Assembly (NCBI RefSeq): GCF_003334815.1
Contig: NZ_QOWO01000001.1
Length of the DNA stretch: 64,000 bases
DNA from: Escherichia coli
GTDB lineage: Bacteria > Pseudomonadota > Gammaproteobacteria > Enterobacterales > Enterobacteriaceae
Reading direction: 5' to 3' (one strand)
Each line of letters begins with the position of its first letter. The stretch's first letter is position 1. The position numbers were made by a program, and so were the translations under genes. The notes under the pieces are model-generated. The model worked only from the letters and a program-made list of their open reading frames with translations, ran no database searches and was not told the origin of the DNA. Below are positions 42,185-51,827 of the stretch, piece after piece.

Positions 42185-42481
42185 ATGTTCGAACAACGCG
42201 TAAATTCTGACGTACTGACCGTTTCTACCGTTAACTCTCAGGATCAGGTAACCCAAAAACCCCTGCGTGACTCGGTTAAACAGGCACTGAAGAACTATTT
42301 TGCTCAACTGAATGGTCAGGATGTGAATGACCTCTATGAGCTGGTACTGGCTGAAGTAGAACAGCCCCTGTTGGACATGGTGATGCAATACACCCGTGGT
42401 AACCAGACCCGTGCTGCGCTGATGATGGGCATCAACCGTGGTACGCTGCGTAAAAAATTGAAAAAATACGGCATGAACTAA
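42185..42481 (+). CDS. fis: nucleoid-associated DNA-binding protein Fis
   Basis: 98-aa [24 protein letters not shown]...[13 protein letters not shown]. Confidence 0.98.
42465..42481. repeat. left direct repeat (attL core) aatacggcatgaactaa, formed by the last codons and stop of fis
   Basis: 17-bp sequence identical to 51811..51827; a degenerate third copy aacggcatgaaattaa lies at 42503..42518. Confidence 0.75.
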
Positions 42482-42506
42482 AGTCAAGCTGTAACGGCAT
42501 GAAATT

Positions 42507-42537
42507 AAAGGGGCTATTTCAGCCCCTTTACTTTTTG
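42507..42537. terminator. bidirectional rho-independent terminator supplied by the element (ends fis read-through and the cargo operon)
   Basis: aaaggggctatttcagcccctttactttttg. Confidence 0.7.
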
Positions 42538-42558
42538 TTGCAACCGTACTGACAACCC

Positions 42559-44832
42559 TTATGGTGTTTGCGCGCCATCTATCATCATGCTTCGCTGCCT
42601 TACTGCTTGTTGCTGTCGTAGTTGCTGTATCACCTTCCGGGCTAATGCATCTTCATTCATACCAGGTTCTGCCTTCACGCTGATGTGGTACTGGTCGTTG
42701 CTATGCACCGTAGTGCCACCAGAGCGGTTGGCCAGTGCAGGTGACGGCAGGGCAGCACCAGAGGCAGTGGTTGCTGCTGGCTGCTGTACATCGTCGCGGA
42801 ATGGTGCGGTAAAGAAATCTTTGGTTTTCTGCCACGCACCACCAGCAACATCAGACACGGCGTTTTTAAACTCCAGTGCCTTGTTGGTCAGGTTGCCAAT
42901 GTTGTCAGAAACCCAAATGATCTTATCAATCAGGAACGTGATCGGTGCGGTCACAAGCTCGATGCCAGCCGCCAGGGTCTTACCGAACGTCATCCCCATT
43001 TTACCGGCCTTATCCAGTTCCTCGCCGCTGTATTTGACCGGTTCGGTCAGTGACGTGAACCAGTTGAAAGCCGTCTTAACCGCAGCGCCCACGCCATCAA
43101 TGACGGGCTTCAATGGCCCCATGCGCTCATACAGGCGATGCAGGGCATCGCTAAGCGGTTCCAGCCCGGATTTGATACCTTCACCCACGCCACCAAAAAA
43201 AGCCTTCACACCAGCCCAATGGCGGTAAATCTGATAACCTGCCAGCGCCAGGCCAGCTACGGCAGCACCAACGCCAGTGGAAATGAACGCCGCACCGATG
43301 GCGCGCACGCCGGTAGCCACCGCAGGCAGGCCACGAGTGCTGGCCAGAACGGCGGATGCGTTCATGCGGGCAAACAGGCTGGACACGTTCAGCAATCCGC
43401 CTTTCAGGAACGTGAACGCAAAGCCAGCGGCGAACGTCGCCACACGCAGTGCCACCAGTGCACTGGAACCAATAACCACTGCTTTGGTCACGGTAGGGTA
43501 TTCGCGCGCCAGTTCGGCAACCTTGCCGATAACCGGGCCAACGGTAGCCAGAACGCCGTTGAATGCTGGCAGCAGCACTGTGCCGATCGTGACGCCCAGG
43601 TTAGACACACGGTTGTTGAAAATCTTAAGCTGCGCCGACGTTTTGGCGGTGGCTGCCTCATATTCAGCCTGCATAGAACCGGCATATTTGGTCTTGTCTT
43701 TGACCATATCCAGATTCTTTTGGTACGTATCAAGCTGTGTCAGCATTGGTGCGATAGCGCCAATCGATTCCTTACCAAACAGTTGCGAAAGCGTTGCCGC
43801 CTGCATGTGTTTTGGCAGCTTGCTGATCTTGGACAGGATGACGCGGATTGTTTCATCGGCGTTCAGTTGCATTGATTTTGCAACCTGCTTGGATGTGAAG
43901 CCAAGCTGTTTAAACGCTTCACGCTGTGACTTCGTGGCGGATGCGCCAGCGGTCAGGGATAGCAGCAGGTTTTTAATACCGGTGGCCGCAATCTCATTCT
44001 GCACGCCCATACCGCGCAGCGTTGCACCCATCGCAGCGATAGAACCGGAAGCTGCACCAGCGACGCTGCCAAGTGGCCCGATGCGCTGCGTGATTTCCAG
44101 GATGTCTTTGGCTGATGCGGCGGTGTTGTTGCCCAGGTAGTTGATCTTGTCGGCCAGAACGTTCATCTGGTCCTGCGTCATCCCGAAGGCGGCGCGCATC
44201 TCTGCCATTGCCTGGCCTGCCTGGTCGGCGCTGACGTCAAAAGCCACACCCATTTTGATGGCCGATTCAGCAAACTTGGTTAGTTCGCTGGTGGCGATGC
44301 CTGATTGAGCACCAGCGGCAACAATCTTGCCGATTTCGTTGGCTGCCATCGGCATTTTGGTTGACATATCCTGGATAGCCTGGCCCATCTTAACCAGGCC
44401 GTCAGGGGTTTCGAAGTTGGCAACCTTGCGGATATCTGCCAGCGTATCTTCAAAATCCATAGCCTGTTTGATCGGTACAGCTACCGTTGCGCCAAGTGCG
44501 ACAGTCCCCAGGATTCCTTCTTTGTAGCCTTGACGCTTCGCCAGGTTGCGTTCGCGGGCATCCTCCACGCGTTTCAGGCGTTCGGTGGCAGAACGAAGGC
44601 GTTCAACCTGCCCGACAACCGTTTGATAGCGGTCCTTCATGCGGGAGAATATCGCGCTATCCTGGCCATAACGCTTCATTGCTTCATTTAACTGGCGCTG
44701 TTCGCGCGACAGCTTAGAGATTGCGCTACCAATCTCGACGGTATTTTTCTTTACAGTTCCAAATGCACCACGAAGGCTGCCGGAAACGGCCCCACCAATC
44801 GTGATTGTTGCATTTAACTTCTTGTTGGCCAT
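42559..44832 (-). CDS. tape-measure-like protein (coiled-coil N-terminal part, hydrophobic Gly/Ala-rich core)
   Basis: 757-aa ORF; composition and motifs (QAGQAMAEMRAAFGMTQDQ, long Ala/Gly-rich hydrophobic stretch) resemble phage tail tape measure proteins as I recall them; not verified by search. Confidence 0.6.
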   Translation of the reverse strand: MANKKLNATITIGGAVSGSLRGAFGTVKKNTVEIGSAISKLSREQRQLNEAMKRYGQDSAIFSRMKDRYQTVVGQVERLRSATERLKRVEDARERNLAKRQGYKEGILGTVALGATVAVPIKQAMDFEDTLADIRKVANFETPDGLVKMGQAIQDMSTKMPMAANEIGKIVAAGAQSGIATSELTKFAESAIKMGVAFDVSADQAGQAMAEMRAAFGMTQDQMNVLADKINYLGNNTAASAKDILEITQRIGPLGSVAGAASGSIAAMGATLRGMGVQNEIAATGIKNLLLSLTAGASATKSQREAFKQLGFTSKQVAKSMQLNADETIRVILSKISKLPKHMQAATLSQLFGKESIGAIAPMLTQLDTYQKNLDMVKDKTKYAGSMQAEYEAATAKTSAQLKIFNNRVSNLGVTIGTVLLPAFNGVLATVGPVIGKVAELAREYPTVTKAVVIGSSALVALRVATFAAGFAFTFLKGGLLNVSSLFARMNASAVLASTRGLPAVATGVRAIGAAFISTGVGAAVAGLALAGYQIYRHWAGVKAFFGGVGEGIKSGLEPLSDALHRLYERMGPLKPVIDGVGAAVKTAFNWFTSLTEPVKYSGEELDKAGKMGMTFGKTLAAGIELVTAPITFLIDKIIWVSDNIGNLTNKALEFKNAVSDVAGGAWQKTKDFFTAPFRDDVQQPAATTASGAALPSPALANRSGGTTVHSNDQYHISVKAEPGMNEDALARKVIQQLRQQQAVRQRSMMIDGAQTP

Positions 44833-50113: not shown

Positions 50114-50407
50114 CTTACGGCCCTCAAAACATGGCCGGTGGATATGTGGTCTGTAATGATTTATGATTATGTTGCGTTAACAAAGAACGCGACCATTACA
50201 GCCTTCACCGGCTTTTTGGTATTAAGGGGTTCGGTTTTCTGTTTGGCGACGTGAACCGATCCCCGCCTTATTCAAGCCCTCAGTTCTGCTGGGGGCTTTT
50301 TATTACTACATGACAATAATACTCAAATTGTATCAGCAGTAAATACCCTTTAAATTCATAAACTTAACTGCAAATAACGCTACATAACTCTATATAATCA
50401 TCAATTT

Positions 50408-51643
50408 TTAATTATCTGATTTTAAAAGGTTTATTTTTTCTAAATATTTTATCCATTTGTCCAAGGCTAACCGTTTTTCCGGGATGTACTGGCTACGGTT
50501 GTACACCGCCATCACTCCTGGCATTGAGTGGCCCAGCAACTGTTCAACCACATGCGGGGCTATCCCCAAGTTATTTAGACTGGTGGCAAAAGTGCGGCGC
50601 AGGTCATGCAACGTCCACGGCGTTGAATGCTCTAATCGTCTGTATAAGATACGCCCCCACTGGCTGACAGCTTCGGGTTTCTTCATTTCACCAAGCAGCA
50701 TTCCGCTATCAAGATGATTTTGGCGTAGCTGTAAAATAAATGGCTGTATAGATTCAGGCACGGGTCTGATGATTTTCTCCCCACCCTTGCTATGTTCTCG
50801 CGGAACTGTCCAAATCCATTCTTTCACGTTCCATTCCGACCATGTCGAAAGACGAATTTCTTGTGTTCTTGCACCAAACACTATTAGCAATTTTAAAAGC
50901 GCGGTGTAGTAAGGTAGAAACGCATATTCGCTTTTTAGCGCATTCCAAAGGCCACTAAGTTCTTCAGAAGTTAAAACACGATCACGTTTTGCCTGCTTTC
51001 TTCCAACATCAGTAACTTTGATATCCTCCAGCGCATCACTGTAAACATCGTGCAGCCTGCGGTTGTGAATCAACGCCTGCTTGCAGTTACCTAATATGTA
51101 GCCGCTTGCTACCGGCGCGACTTTTTTGATTCTGCTAAATGTCTCCATCCATCTTGCTTTAGAGCACTGTTCAAGTGGCAATTCGCCGATGAAAGGATAA
51201 ATATGTCTTTCGAATTGGCGTCTATGCCTTTCAAAGTTGACCCGGTTTTCCGCCGCGTACTCATTAATCCAGCGTTCCAATGCTTCCCTGATAGTGACAG
51301 GTTTCATGGTTTTTGCTGACTCTTGGTCAAACTGGTCTTTAGGATCTAGATTATGAGCAAGCCACCGTTTGCATTGGTCGCGTTTCACCCTCGCCTCAGC
51401 AAGAGATAAGGCAGGATACTTGCCCAGCACTAGCGTCAAAGTATTGGCGCTTTTATGCTTATTCTTATAACGGAACAACCATTGGATGTTATTGGCCGGT
51501 CTCTTCTCGCCATCAAGGATTTTGCGCCTTGATGGTGTAACGCGAACAGAAAGGCTGCCACCGTCAGCAACATCAAAAGGTTTTTCGATGACTTTGCGGG
51601 TTAACGCACGCAATTGAACATCTGAGAGTTTATTTTCGGCCAT
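50408..51643 (-). CDS. tyrosine recombinase/integrase, P4-type (N-terminal DUF4102-like arm-binding domain)
   Basis: ORF 50408..51715 begins with TTG; ATG at 51643 gives ~411 aa; N-terminal KLSD...DGGSL...LGKYPALSLAEARVKRD; C-terminal catalytic signature LHDLRRTFAT...LLGHS...AVYNRSQY. Confidence 0.88.
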   Translation of the reverse strand: MAENKLSDVQLRALTRKVIEKPFDVADGGSLSVRVTPSRRKILDGEKRPANNIQWLFRYKNKHKSANTLTLVLGKYPALSLAEARVKRDQCKRWLAHNLDPKDQFDQESAKTMKPVTIREALERWINEYAAENRVNFERHRRQFERHIYPFIGELPLEQCSKARWMETFSRIKKVAPVASGYILGNCKQALIHNRRLHDVYSDALEDIKVTDVGRKQAKRDRVLTSEELSGLWNALKSEYAFLPYYTALLKLLIVFGARTQEIRLSTWSEWNVKEWIWTVPREHSKGGEKIIRPVPESIQPFILQLRQNHLDSGMLLGEMKKPEAVSQWGRILYRRLEHSTPWTLHDLRRTFATSLNNLGIAPHVVEQLLGHSMPGVMAVYNRSQYIPEKRLALDKWIKYLEKINLLKSDN

Positions 51644-51810
51644 AGAGTTAATGACAACCTTTTTGACAACTGTATGCAGGGAGTAACTGATAACTGATGA
51701 TACAATGCGAGCCAATAAAAAATAAATATCTCTTTCCGCATCAATTATTTATGATGAATACAAATTATCTAGAGTGATAATAAATTACGTATAATGACTC
51801 TGTATTTTAC

Positions 51811-51827
51811 AATACGGCATGAACTAA
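51811..51827. repeat. right direct repeat (attR core) aatacggcatgaactaa
   Basis: perfect 17-bp copy of the fis 3' end, located about 170 bp beyond the integrase start. Confidence 0.75.

Follow-up and report, generated by a model that had tools for sequence, protein, structure and literature searches.

Within the 64-kb window (the whole stretch of E. coli DNA analysed here), fis and yhdJ are separated by about 9.3 kb, which raises the questions of whether this DNA is a mobile element and, if so, of what kind.

Attachment site and boundaries

The original prediction held that a 17-bp direct repeat brackets the intervening DNA. In the 64-kb window, AATACGGCATGAACTAA occurs in exactly two copies, both on the + strand at 42465–42481 and 51811–51827, and no third copy is found when up to 2 mismatches are tolerated; 0.03 matches are expected by chance, and two copies appeared in 0/100 shuffles. 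The repeat is exactly 17 bp long because the flanking bases diverge at once on either side. The first copy (attL identity block, 42465..42481, +), identical to the block listed for the Eco*.9.fis islands, corresponds to the last four codons and the stop of the intact target gene fis (42185..42481, +), a translated 98-aa ORF annotated as WP_000462905.1 in L001, a locus 99.8% identical to that of the window. The second exact copy is the attR identity block (51811..51827, +).

In silico removal of the 9,346 bp between the copies, i.e., joining 42081–42481 to 51828–52227, yields an 801-nt dusB-fis-yhdJ junction with 100% identity to other E. coli, which is contiguous in NZ_CP025903.1 and others. 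This uninterrupted site, with the single copy of the 17-mer that had been anticipated, is found in 5,309/5,426 complete E. coli genomes, and the ~9.36 kb element in 72/5,426, from unrelated sources. The carriers are 94–99.8% identical among the matches listed, with lower values in some of the 72, and exhibit alternative alleles of the cargo and of the tail tape measure protein (TMP). The element lies between fis and yhdJ in 4/4 loci examined (the window, L001, L019 and, by its published coordinates, Eco5354.9.fis). The majority of empty sites and the patchy occurrence of the element indicate that the repeat marks the insertion boundaries and that the element interrupting the fis-yhdJ adjacency is accessory, not ancestral. 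Judged from these sequence comparisons, a 9.3-kb mobile element inserted at the 3′ end of fis is confirmed.

Since the rebuilt junction is 100% identical to that of the empty-site genomes, the fis coding sequence is intact, in agreement with the proposal that the Fis protein is unchanged while its 3′ flank and terminator are exchanged. The native rho-independent terminator of fis (51857..51888, +; GGCGCT...AGCGCC TTTTTT), contiguous with fis in empty-site genomes, has been pushed 9.3 kb away. Its substitute is an element-supplied hairpin with a T-run (42506..42530, +), detected in a terminator scan as a 10-pair stem followed by CTTTTTGTTG and located between the convergent fis and TMP genes. 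The element brings substitute last codons and a terminator, and therefore Fis is unaffected.

The suggestion that fis is an unusual attachment site did not hold, since Tommasini, Mageeney & Williams (2023) mapped 3,565 fis islands with the identity-block consensus TACGGCATGAACTAA (PMC10111431), and the Vibrionaceae PICMIs also use this site (PMC10803314); that mobile elements attach at fis has been published before and is not in itself a new finding. Eco5354.9.fis (CP022393.1:989847-999192), which has the same 17-bp block and is listed among the fis islands (PMC10111431), is a 99.2%-identical copy of the window element. For the ~9-kb E. coli elements, the second-phase survey in that study gives only coordinates and the att block; PMC10111431 mentions neither a tape measure nor VapE and does not describe the late zone, the cos origin, a candidate helper or plasmid siblings. 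What may be of interest in the element is its cargo.

Replication genes, cos-like site and late operon

The integrase expected next to the right repeat is a 411-aa tyrosine integrase as counted from the RefSeq ATG (50408..51643, −; the ORF reaches 51715), annotated in L001, which has the Arm-DNA-bind_3 and Phage_integrase domains of the predicted P4 type and points inward. On the same strand lie an AlpA-family regulator/excisionase (49934..50113, −; PF05930, E 3.9e-13; phrog_66), a 93-aa ORF between alpA and the helicase gene (49644..49925, −), and a 562-aa VapE-type helicase/initiator (47972..49660, −; PF05272, E 6e-48). VapE residues 159–556 share 65% identity with the C-terminal portion of the Bas97 primase, and the vapE DNA is 75–80% identical to Jilinvirus primase genes; no primase domain was recognised in the 562-aa protein. 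The gene that follows the replicase gene in all relatives encodes here a 74-aa protein (47738..47962, −) with 47% identity to a 75-aa protein of plasmid pSCU-121-2. Of the 14 exact window copies of the iteron GGTGTCAT, 10 are clustered within 47366..47668 (no strand assigned), just downstream of the helicase gene; they lie in both orientations around AT-rich DNA, and this cluster is a probable replication origin.

A 73-bp non-coding stretch at 47278..47350 (−) matches Bas97 40926–40998, which falls between the spanin gene and terS, at 71/73 positions, and ECO1230-10 and ep3 at 72/73. It contains, at 47300–47312, the 13-nt cohesive-end sequence GGGGCATTGGTCC, which the linear ECOO78 record also has at either end. 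The 73-bp stretch has matches in only 12 phage records, all of them Jilinvirus-group relatives, and its overall identity to the cos region of Jilinvirus myophages is 97–99%, compared with 59–65% for the proteins in common with these phages. Thus, the cos of Jilinvirus (Iiscvirinae) myophages is present in the element as a near-exact copy, a cos mimic. The nearest relatives of the TMP (59%) and VapE (65%) belong to the same phage group. Jilinvirus terL-portal DNA was found in none of the 5,426 complete E. coli genomes, so the proposed helper is not resident, and contact with it has to be assumed. The Iiscvirinae/Jilinvirus myophages behave mostly as virulent phages, and no report of a satellite of the Jilinvirus group was found in the literature.

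About half of the element is a late operon, which begins with an HK97-fold capsid-like protein, continues with four small proteins and ends in a full-length TMP. The 294-aa major-capsid-like protein (46087..46971, −), assigned by its HK97-fold match, has no detectable similarity in sequence to the capsid domain of Jilinvirus (the hhalign match was confined to the protease portion of fused homologues), and a tblastn search of all phage records returned zero matches; this lack of similarity makes co-assembly with the helper capsid less obvious. The 104-aa (45770..46084, −) and 54-aa (45602..45766, −) proteins are conserved down to Pseudomonas (32%, E 2e-17, and 35%, respectively), and the latter, which has no Pfam match, looks ribbon-helix-helix-like by eye. 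A 105-aa helical protein with a basic C-terminus (45070..45387, −) has plasmid homologues with 94–95% identity and no family match in PHROG, NCBIfam or PADLOC. The RefSeq model of this gene extends to 45519 and comprises 149 aa; the plasmid homologues begin at M45 of the 149-aa ORF, so the RefSeq call is probably over-extended. The 68-aa protein directly upstream of the TMP (44854..45060, −) is 88–99% identical to its plasmid siblings and 36–38% to a Pseudomonas 71-aa protein; with no match in PHROG, NCBIfam or PADLOC, it is by position a candidate tail-assembly chaperone.

The 757-aa TMP (42559..44832, −; TIGR01760, E 5e-71; phrog_28, E 3e-129) is 58.8% identical to the Bas97 TMP over its full length. 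Its residues 100–450 are 52–86% identical to Jilinvirus TMPs versus 22–44% to plasmid-type satellite TMPs, a mosaic pattern that suggests ongoing exchange with helper TMPs. The element has no recognised gene for a portal, protease, terminase, scaffold or Rpp/Ppi-like protein, nor, in its E. coli form, for a tail hub; no further ORF is large enough for a portal, and PHROG and NCBIfam gave no matching families.

Relatives and described satellites

The capsid-to-TMP module also occurs on circular ~9-kb plasmids without an integrase, which carry full primases, are found in E. coli, Salmonella, Proteus and gut metagenomes, and are labelled non-mobilizable in PLSDB. Plasmid siblings have an AbiEi-like cargo slot. 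The units span a tight range of 8.95–9.41 kb. Five stand-alone ~9-kb contigs are all integrase-less plasmids, with no circular form carrying the integrase among them. A Pseudomonas island with a different integrase retains the same module synteny at ~39% capsid-protein identity, which shows that the module has been under long-term selection. A Salmonella myophage prophage contains, inside its capsid gene, an element with a homologous protease-fused capsid-like gene; no TMP was seen in that element.

The fis islands have been classified as PICIs (PMC10111431). The window element has the same attachment site, with an identity block (AATACGGCATGAACTAA) of the TACGGCATMAACTAA consensus family, and the same order of inward integrase and AlpA, a replication zone with an adjacent origin, and a late zone with phage late genes. 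Unlike the fis PICIs, it has no recognised Bro-type gene: the zone between alpA and the replicase holds just the 93-aa ORF, without a PHROG or NCBIfam match. The immunity RNAs C4/isrK gave no Rfam match at E ≤ 1 in the element. With the PICMIs (Barcia-Cruz et al. 2024, PMC10803314), the element shares insertion at the end of fis, 17-bp repeats, the series int, alpA, small gene and replicase, and a (here proposed) helper that infects the cell instead of residing in it as a prophage. However, PICMIs are ~6–7 kb long, occur only in Vibrionaceae, lack genes for capsid remodelling and are packaged as concatemers of roughly eight units (PMC10803314), whereas the window element is 9.3 kb long, enterobacterial and equipped with capsid-like and TMP genes. 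In addition, the PICMI model needs PF13148 or PF19263 (DUF3987/DUF5906), whereas the window replicase matches only PF05272.

Satellite P4 resembles the element in its integrase architecture, a cos copied from its helper P2, a helicase-type replicase, and the occurrence of both integrated and plasmid states in a single lineage. In contrast, P4 has no capsid-protein or TMP gene, and the window cos matches Jilinvirus, not P2. No PHROG or NCBIfam matches to psu, sid, delta or alpha genes and no P4 CI RNA (by Rfam) were found in the element. The PLEs, specific to V. cholerae and ICP1, differ in their own integration, replication and capsid functions (a large serine recombinase, RepA and TcaP), for which general PHROG/NCBIfam searches of the element gave no recognisable match. 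In PLE chimeric tails, a helper-related satellite TMP is built into otherwise helper-derived contractile tails, and satellites from beyond the Vibrionaceae are noted to have predicted tmp genes as well (10.1101/2025.01.29.635557). The window element likewise encodes a TMP, full-length and related to that of its proposed helper; PLE TMPs are ~20% identical to that of ICP1, in contrast to the 59% and mosaic exchange observed here.

The SaPIbov5 Ccm is a clear sequence homologue of the helper capsid protein, whereas the window protein is not, and cf-PICIs add a portal, protease, connectors and packaging proteins (small terminase/HNH), whereas the window element has the capsid-like protein only. 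The EPIPs of Mycolicibacterium are small satellites for which a major capsid protein is listed together with a TMP, and EM shows smaller heads and altered tails (10.64898/2025.12.02.691453). They differ in that their host is an actinobacterium, their integrase is of the serine type, their helper is a siphovirus, and they have a small terminase and head-tail adaptors of their own.

A probable satellite of Jilinvirus-like phages and competing readings

The element is probably a PICI-type phage satellite of Jilinvirus-like helpers that integrated into the last 17 bp of fis by site-specific recombination; from its sequence we infer that it depends on such helpers, remodels capsids and gives rise to chimeric tails. 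Upon infection by such a helper, alpA would be switched on, leading to excision, as reported after mitomycin-C induction for a Klebsiella fis island (PMC10111431), and to replication from the iteron origin. The helper terminase would then cut and package the satellite at the mimic cos; this copied site is indirect evidence for excision, replication and packaging induced by a helper. The capsid-like protein may redirect assembly to, or itself build, a small shell, comparable to Ccm in SaPIbov5, a capsid-protein homologue that redirects capsid size (PMC8569155; structure 7rwz); alternatively, a normal head may be filled by four copies (37.4 kb, 91% of 41 kb). The satellite TMP would take the place of the helper TMP in the tail, as in PLEs, and in a new cell the integrase would insert the satellite DNA at fis.

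A packaging mode like that of the PICMIs, in which about four copies travel as a head-full concatemer in helper capsids that are not modified, with the capsid-like and TMP genes used for interference or entry and not to build a small virion, seems unlikely to us. The fis site, the 17-bp repeat and the int-alpA-x-replicase core are indeed as in PICMI115, four units amount to 35.8–37.6 kb (87–92% of the 41-kb Jilinvirus genome), the proposed helper, as for PICMI, does not reside in the cell as a prophage, and the capsid-like protein and the helper capsid protein are not similar in sequence. However, PICMIs are defined by a minimal content without capsid genes, whereas roughly half of this element is a morphogenetic operon conserved from E. 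coli to Pseudomonas, and its replicase is VapE instead of DUF3987 or DUF5906.

It is very improbable that the element is an immobile remnant, i.e., a decayed prophage or island fixed at fis and no longer capable of excision or transfer. None of its ORFs is broken, and both repeats, the cos site and the iterons are preserved intact; the 72 genomes come from unrelated sources, with 94–99.8% identity (matches listed; some lower) and alternative TMP and cargo alleles; gene order is kept in Pseudomonas, close relatives are circular replicons, and excision is reported for the Klebsiella fis island. These observations stand against the missing terminase, portal and tail genes (as that reading counts them), the lack of a helper prophage in carrier genomes and the missing integrase-bearing circle among the five ~9-kb contigs. 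Interference with helpers is common among satellites, and the element could also be primarily an anti-phage defence island, whose TMP and capsid-like protein act as decoys or poisons of Jilinvirus-like assembly with mobility being secondary. Tail-assembly interference systems are known on PICIs (PMC11364771), a near-helper TMP could poison tails, and the AbiEi-like cargo slot of the plasmid siblings points in the same direction. This reading is nevertheless highly doubtful, as 0/10 scanned proteins (integrase left out) match PADLOC, save weak HTH matches to AlpA, and pure defence would need neither an exact cos copy nor a replication origin; moreover, transfer and interference can coexist.

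Beyond the assignment as a satellite of Jilinvirus-like helpers, we tentatively propose that there may be an undescribed family of satellites parasitising Iiscvirinae/Jilinvirus, of which the element would represent one backbone variant. Such a family would combine a conserved late module (the HK97-fold capsid-like protein, a TMP and three to five small proteins) and helper-type cos with interchangeable maintenance modules (the fis integrase in E. coli, another integrase in Pseudomonas, plasmids), and its virions would be chimeric in head and tail. By uniting a capsid-like protein with a near-helper TMP, a satellite of this kind would bring the recently reported "chimeric tail" strategy of the Vibrio PLEs into enterobacteria. 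The cos copy points to an available helper group, Jilinvirus, e.g., HeidiAbel/Bas97 of the BASEL collection, and by naming a concrete group it makes helper dependence directly testable in E. coli. The morphogenetic module on the integrase-less ~9-kb plasmids further suggests that some cryptic small plasmids are phage-transmitted.

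Insertion at the 3' end of fis

The 17-mer AATACGGCATGAACTAA occurs exactly twice in the window (42465-42481 and 51811-51827), with no third copy even when two mismatches are allowed, and two copies were found in 0 of 100 shuffles. The repeat is exactly 17 bp long, because the flanks differ at once on either side, and its left copy forms the end of fis (ORF 42185-42481). An empty site was reconstructed from the 401 bases up to and including the first copy and the 400 bases that follow the second, and this junction was 100% identical and contiguous in other E. coli chromosomes, in which it is annotated dusB-fis-yhdJ. 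Of 5,426 complete E. coli genomes, 5,309 show this arrangement uninterrupted and only 72 (of human, pig, poultry, dog, water and sludge origin) carry the 9.36-kb insert, which lies between fis and yhdJ in those carriers whose annotation was read. The original prediction of an element inserted at the 3' end of fis and bounded by a 17-bp repeat is thus borne out by both the repeat and the insertion-free genomes, and the scenario of ancestral DNA or of a repeat lying off the boundaries is excluded. The insertion is precise and site-specific, and fis is preserved. A hairpin and T-run at 42506-42530 after fis takes the place of the native fis terminator, which now lies at 51857-51888.

The prediction also regarded fis as an unusual attachment site, which does not hold, since fis is an already documented target (PMC10111431; PMC10803314). 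Tommasini, Mageeney & Williams mapped 2,642, later 3,565, genomic islands in fis, with the identity-block consensus TACGGCATGAACTAA and a block that often runs on into the fis terminator; mitomycin-C-induced excision of a Klebsiella fis island at the identity block is cited in the same work (PMC10111431). Among the E. coli islands in its supplementary table are many "Eco*.9.fis" and "*.10.fis" entries that share the block aatacggcatgaactaa; one of them, Eco5354.9.fis (CP022393.1:989847-999192), is 99.2% identical to the window element. Vibrionaceae PICMIs likewise integrate at the fis end with 17-bp repeats, and the authors called fis integration a hallmark (PMC10803314). The insertion is real and was rightly interpreted, but fis as an attachment site is already published. 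As far as the literature search reached, this cargo has not been described, nor has the inferred Jilinvirus helper, and the two make the element a variant of satellite kinds already known, not a kind of its own; no description of a capsid-plus-TMP element (TMP, tail tape measure protein) or of Jilinvirus satellites was found in a literature coverage that is incomplete and leaves such absence unproven.

Gene order and late proteins

Every gene of the element is on the minus strand. Read from the right end, the integrase gene (Arm-DNA-bind_3 and Phage_integrase domains) comes first and is followed, after a 294-bp spacer, by AlpA (PF05930, E 3.9e-13), a 93-aa ORF, a 562-aa VapE protein (PF05272), a 74-aa ORF, a non-coding region of about 770 bp and a tight late operon encoding 294-, 104-, 54-, 105- and 68-aa proteins and, lastly, a 757-aa TMP (TIGR01760, E 5e-71). 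Between int and alpA, at 50139-50310 on the plus strand, a sigma70-like site (50139-50167) precedes a region that folds into four hairpins (MFE -52.6 kcal/mol, z -5.2 vs. shuffles) with a strong terminator at its end (50274-50298 plus T-run). This candidate RNA of ~130 nt could be antisense to the alpA leader. The region has no Rfam match, and no P4-type immunity RNA was found by Rfam search.

Searches of Pfam, PHROG, NCBIfam and PDB sequences found no match for the 294-aa protein, nor did tblastn against 50,697 phage records. An AF2 model was made from 26 homologues (pLDDT 77.4, pTM 0.74), and fold comparison alone identifies the protein as an HK97-fold capsid-like protein. In hhalign comparisons of this family with gp5 of the Jilinvirus phage Bas97 (HeidiAbel), only the protease part of fused homologues aligned, leaving the capsid domain unmatched. 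In Jilinvirus phages the 682-aa "major head protein" (4613-6661 in Bas97) is itself a fusion protein, with a match to an HK97-type prohead protease at residues 32-188 and the capsid domain further downstream.

The five small proteins scanned have no PHROG, NCBIfam or PADLOC match, and the 54-aa protein has no Pfam match. The 149-aa CDS that RefSeq annotates at 45070-45519 in identical copies of the element is probably too long; its likely start is M45, giving a 105-aa product like that of the plasmid siblings. The 68-aa protein was considered as gpX and rejected; a true gpX homologue, 46% identical to Bas97 gpX, is present in the related Pseudomonas element, and none is present in the E. coli element.

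A cos-like site and the proposed helper

Directly downstream of the helicase gene, 10 of the 14 exact GGTGTCAT octamers of the window are clustered within 47366-47668, in both orientations and around AT-rich DNA, an arrangement to be expected at an iteron origin, which makes this region the predicted origin. A plus-strand RefSeq "hypothetical protein" (47406-47735) spans it and is probably spurious. The adjoining stretch, 47278-47350, is identical at 71 of 73 positions to Bas97 40926-40998, an intergenic stretch from the spanin gene to terS. It matches only 12 of the 50,697 phage records, all of them Jilinvirus phages or close relatives, including ECO1230-10 and ep3 (both 72/73), Bas97, PT1, Alux-21, ECOO78, Arya and Serratia MQ-4. 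The linear ECOO78 record (KY705409.1) carries GGGGCATTGGTCC (minus strand) at both termini, 1-13 and 41277-41289, and the Arya record begins 4 nt upstream of it. This 13-mer can be read as the putative cohesive end of Jilinvirus phages, most simply deposited twice in ECOO78, which would define cos for these phages. The window holds one copy (47300-47312) with ~30 conserved bases on either side. This non-coding DNA is 97-99% identical to the phages vs. 59-65% protein identity elsewhere, a pattern characteristic of packaging sites that stay matched to a helper terminase.

TMP and VapE point to the same phages, which are small myoviruses of 41-44 kb (BASEL paper). The TMP is 58.8% identical to Bas97 TMP over its whole length, and its 757 aa, vs. 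about 785 aa in the helper TMP, predict tails of nearly equal length. Over VapE residues 159-556, identity to the C-terminal part of Bas97 primase is 65% (DNA 75-80% identical), the N-terminal part of the phage primase being absent from the satellite protein. The TMP is a mosaic: over residues 100-450 it shares 52-86% identity with Jilinvirus TMPs vs. only 22-44% with the TMP of sibling satellites, and residues 500-650 are 96-98% identical among satellites, suggesting, by sequence comparison, recombination with helper genes. Jilinvirus terL-portal DNA, the mark of a resident prophage, is absent from all 5,426 complete E. coli genomes, so that the helper would need to arrive by infection, as it does for PICMIs and PLEs.

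The element thus contains an integrase/AlpA module, a helicase with a predicted iteron origin, a helper-type cos, a capsid-fold protein and a TMP. It is proposed that helper infection would lead to AlpA-dependent excision and replication, that the helper terminase would package the satellite from cos, and that the satellite TMP would replace that of the helper to give chimeric tails. By analogy with Ccm, the capsid-like protein may give rise to a small shell; alternatively, tetramers of the satellite may fill normal heads, as in PICMI. PICMI-style concatemer packaging is given a minor but real chance; unit lengths are 8.95-9.41 kb, and four units amount to 87-92% of a 41-kb helper genome. Precedents for altered particles are the PLEs, which put their own TMP into chimeric tails (10.1101/2025.01.29.635557), and the EPIP preprint, which lists satellites with both capsid and TMP genes and describes altered heads and tails (10.64898/2025.12.02.691453). 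That the element is a decayed remnant is very improbable, given its intact features, patchy distribution and deep conservation, and a pure defence island is equally improbable, as none of the 10 proteins scanned matches PADLOC, apart from weak HTH matches to AlpA. Membership in the P4-like, cf-PICI and PICMI classes was rejected on membership tests.

Relatives on other backbones

Stand-alone contigs of 8.9-9.5 kb hold many of the homologues. The fetched ~9-kb contigs are mutual rotations whose terminal overlap in most equals the assembler k-mer (127, 77 or 30), showing that they are circular molecules. Excised integrase-carrying circles were sought among ~9-kb contigs, and each of five look-ups gave integrase-less plasmids. 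The capsid-to-TMP module of the window element recurs on these plasmids, and in the first type compared its Jilinvirus-type cos does too; the DNA of that type is about 90% identical to window 44662-47355 and 42581-43448. The plasmids lack integrase and alpA; their primases are full-length PriCT_2/Toprim proteins with a fused VapE or DUF5906 domain. We infer that the primase domain, missing in integrated forms and present in plasmid forms, fits helper- or host-dependent vs. autonomous replication. Five such records, from E. coli, Salmonella and Proteus, are listed in PLSDB; four measure 8.9-9.3 kb and one 17.4 kb, and every one is labelled non-mobilizable, e.g., pSCU-121-2 (CP054330.1). Others occur in gut metagenomes. 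Such plasmids may be phage-transmitted.

Eight of the circular contigs (L012 and L020-L026) have a variable cargo slot between the 53-aa and 105-aa genes, holding a 159-aa AbiEi_4-like gene and a 73-aa gene. Their cos is a variant whose left half matches Jilinvirus and whose cohesive-end region differs, suggesting a different, unsequenced helper.

In Pseudomonas (CP068034.2, about 2195770-2205370), a syntenic ~9.9-kb element with an 831-aa TMP lies outside fis. Its capsid-like protein shows 39% identity, and the order int, AlpA, small gene, VapE, small gene, gap, capsid-like gene, small proteins, gpX and TMP is conserved; the left flanks are unlike in the two genomes compared (L017 and L018). 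In Salmonella enterica (GCA_018535225.1, ABAQCL010000006.1), the capsid gene of a myophage prophage is split into 5' and 3' fragments of 484 aa and 241 aa (the latter Phage_capsid) by an element that encodes an integrase of its own, an AAA_25 protein and a 463-aa fusion of protease and capsid protein. This element has the look of a satellite embedded in its helper and resembles the helper-embedded PICIs of Tommasini et al. (PMC10111431).
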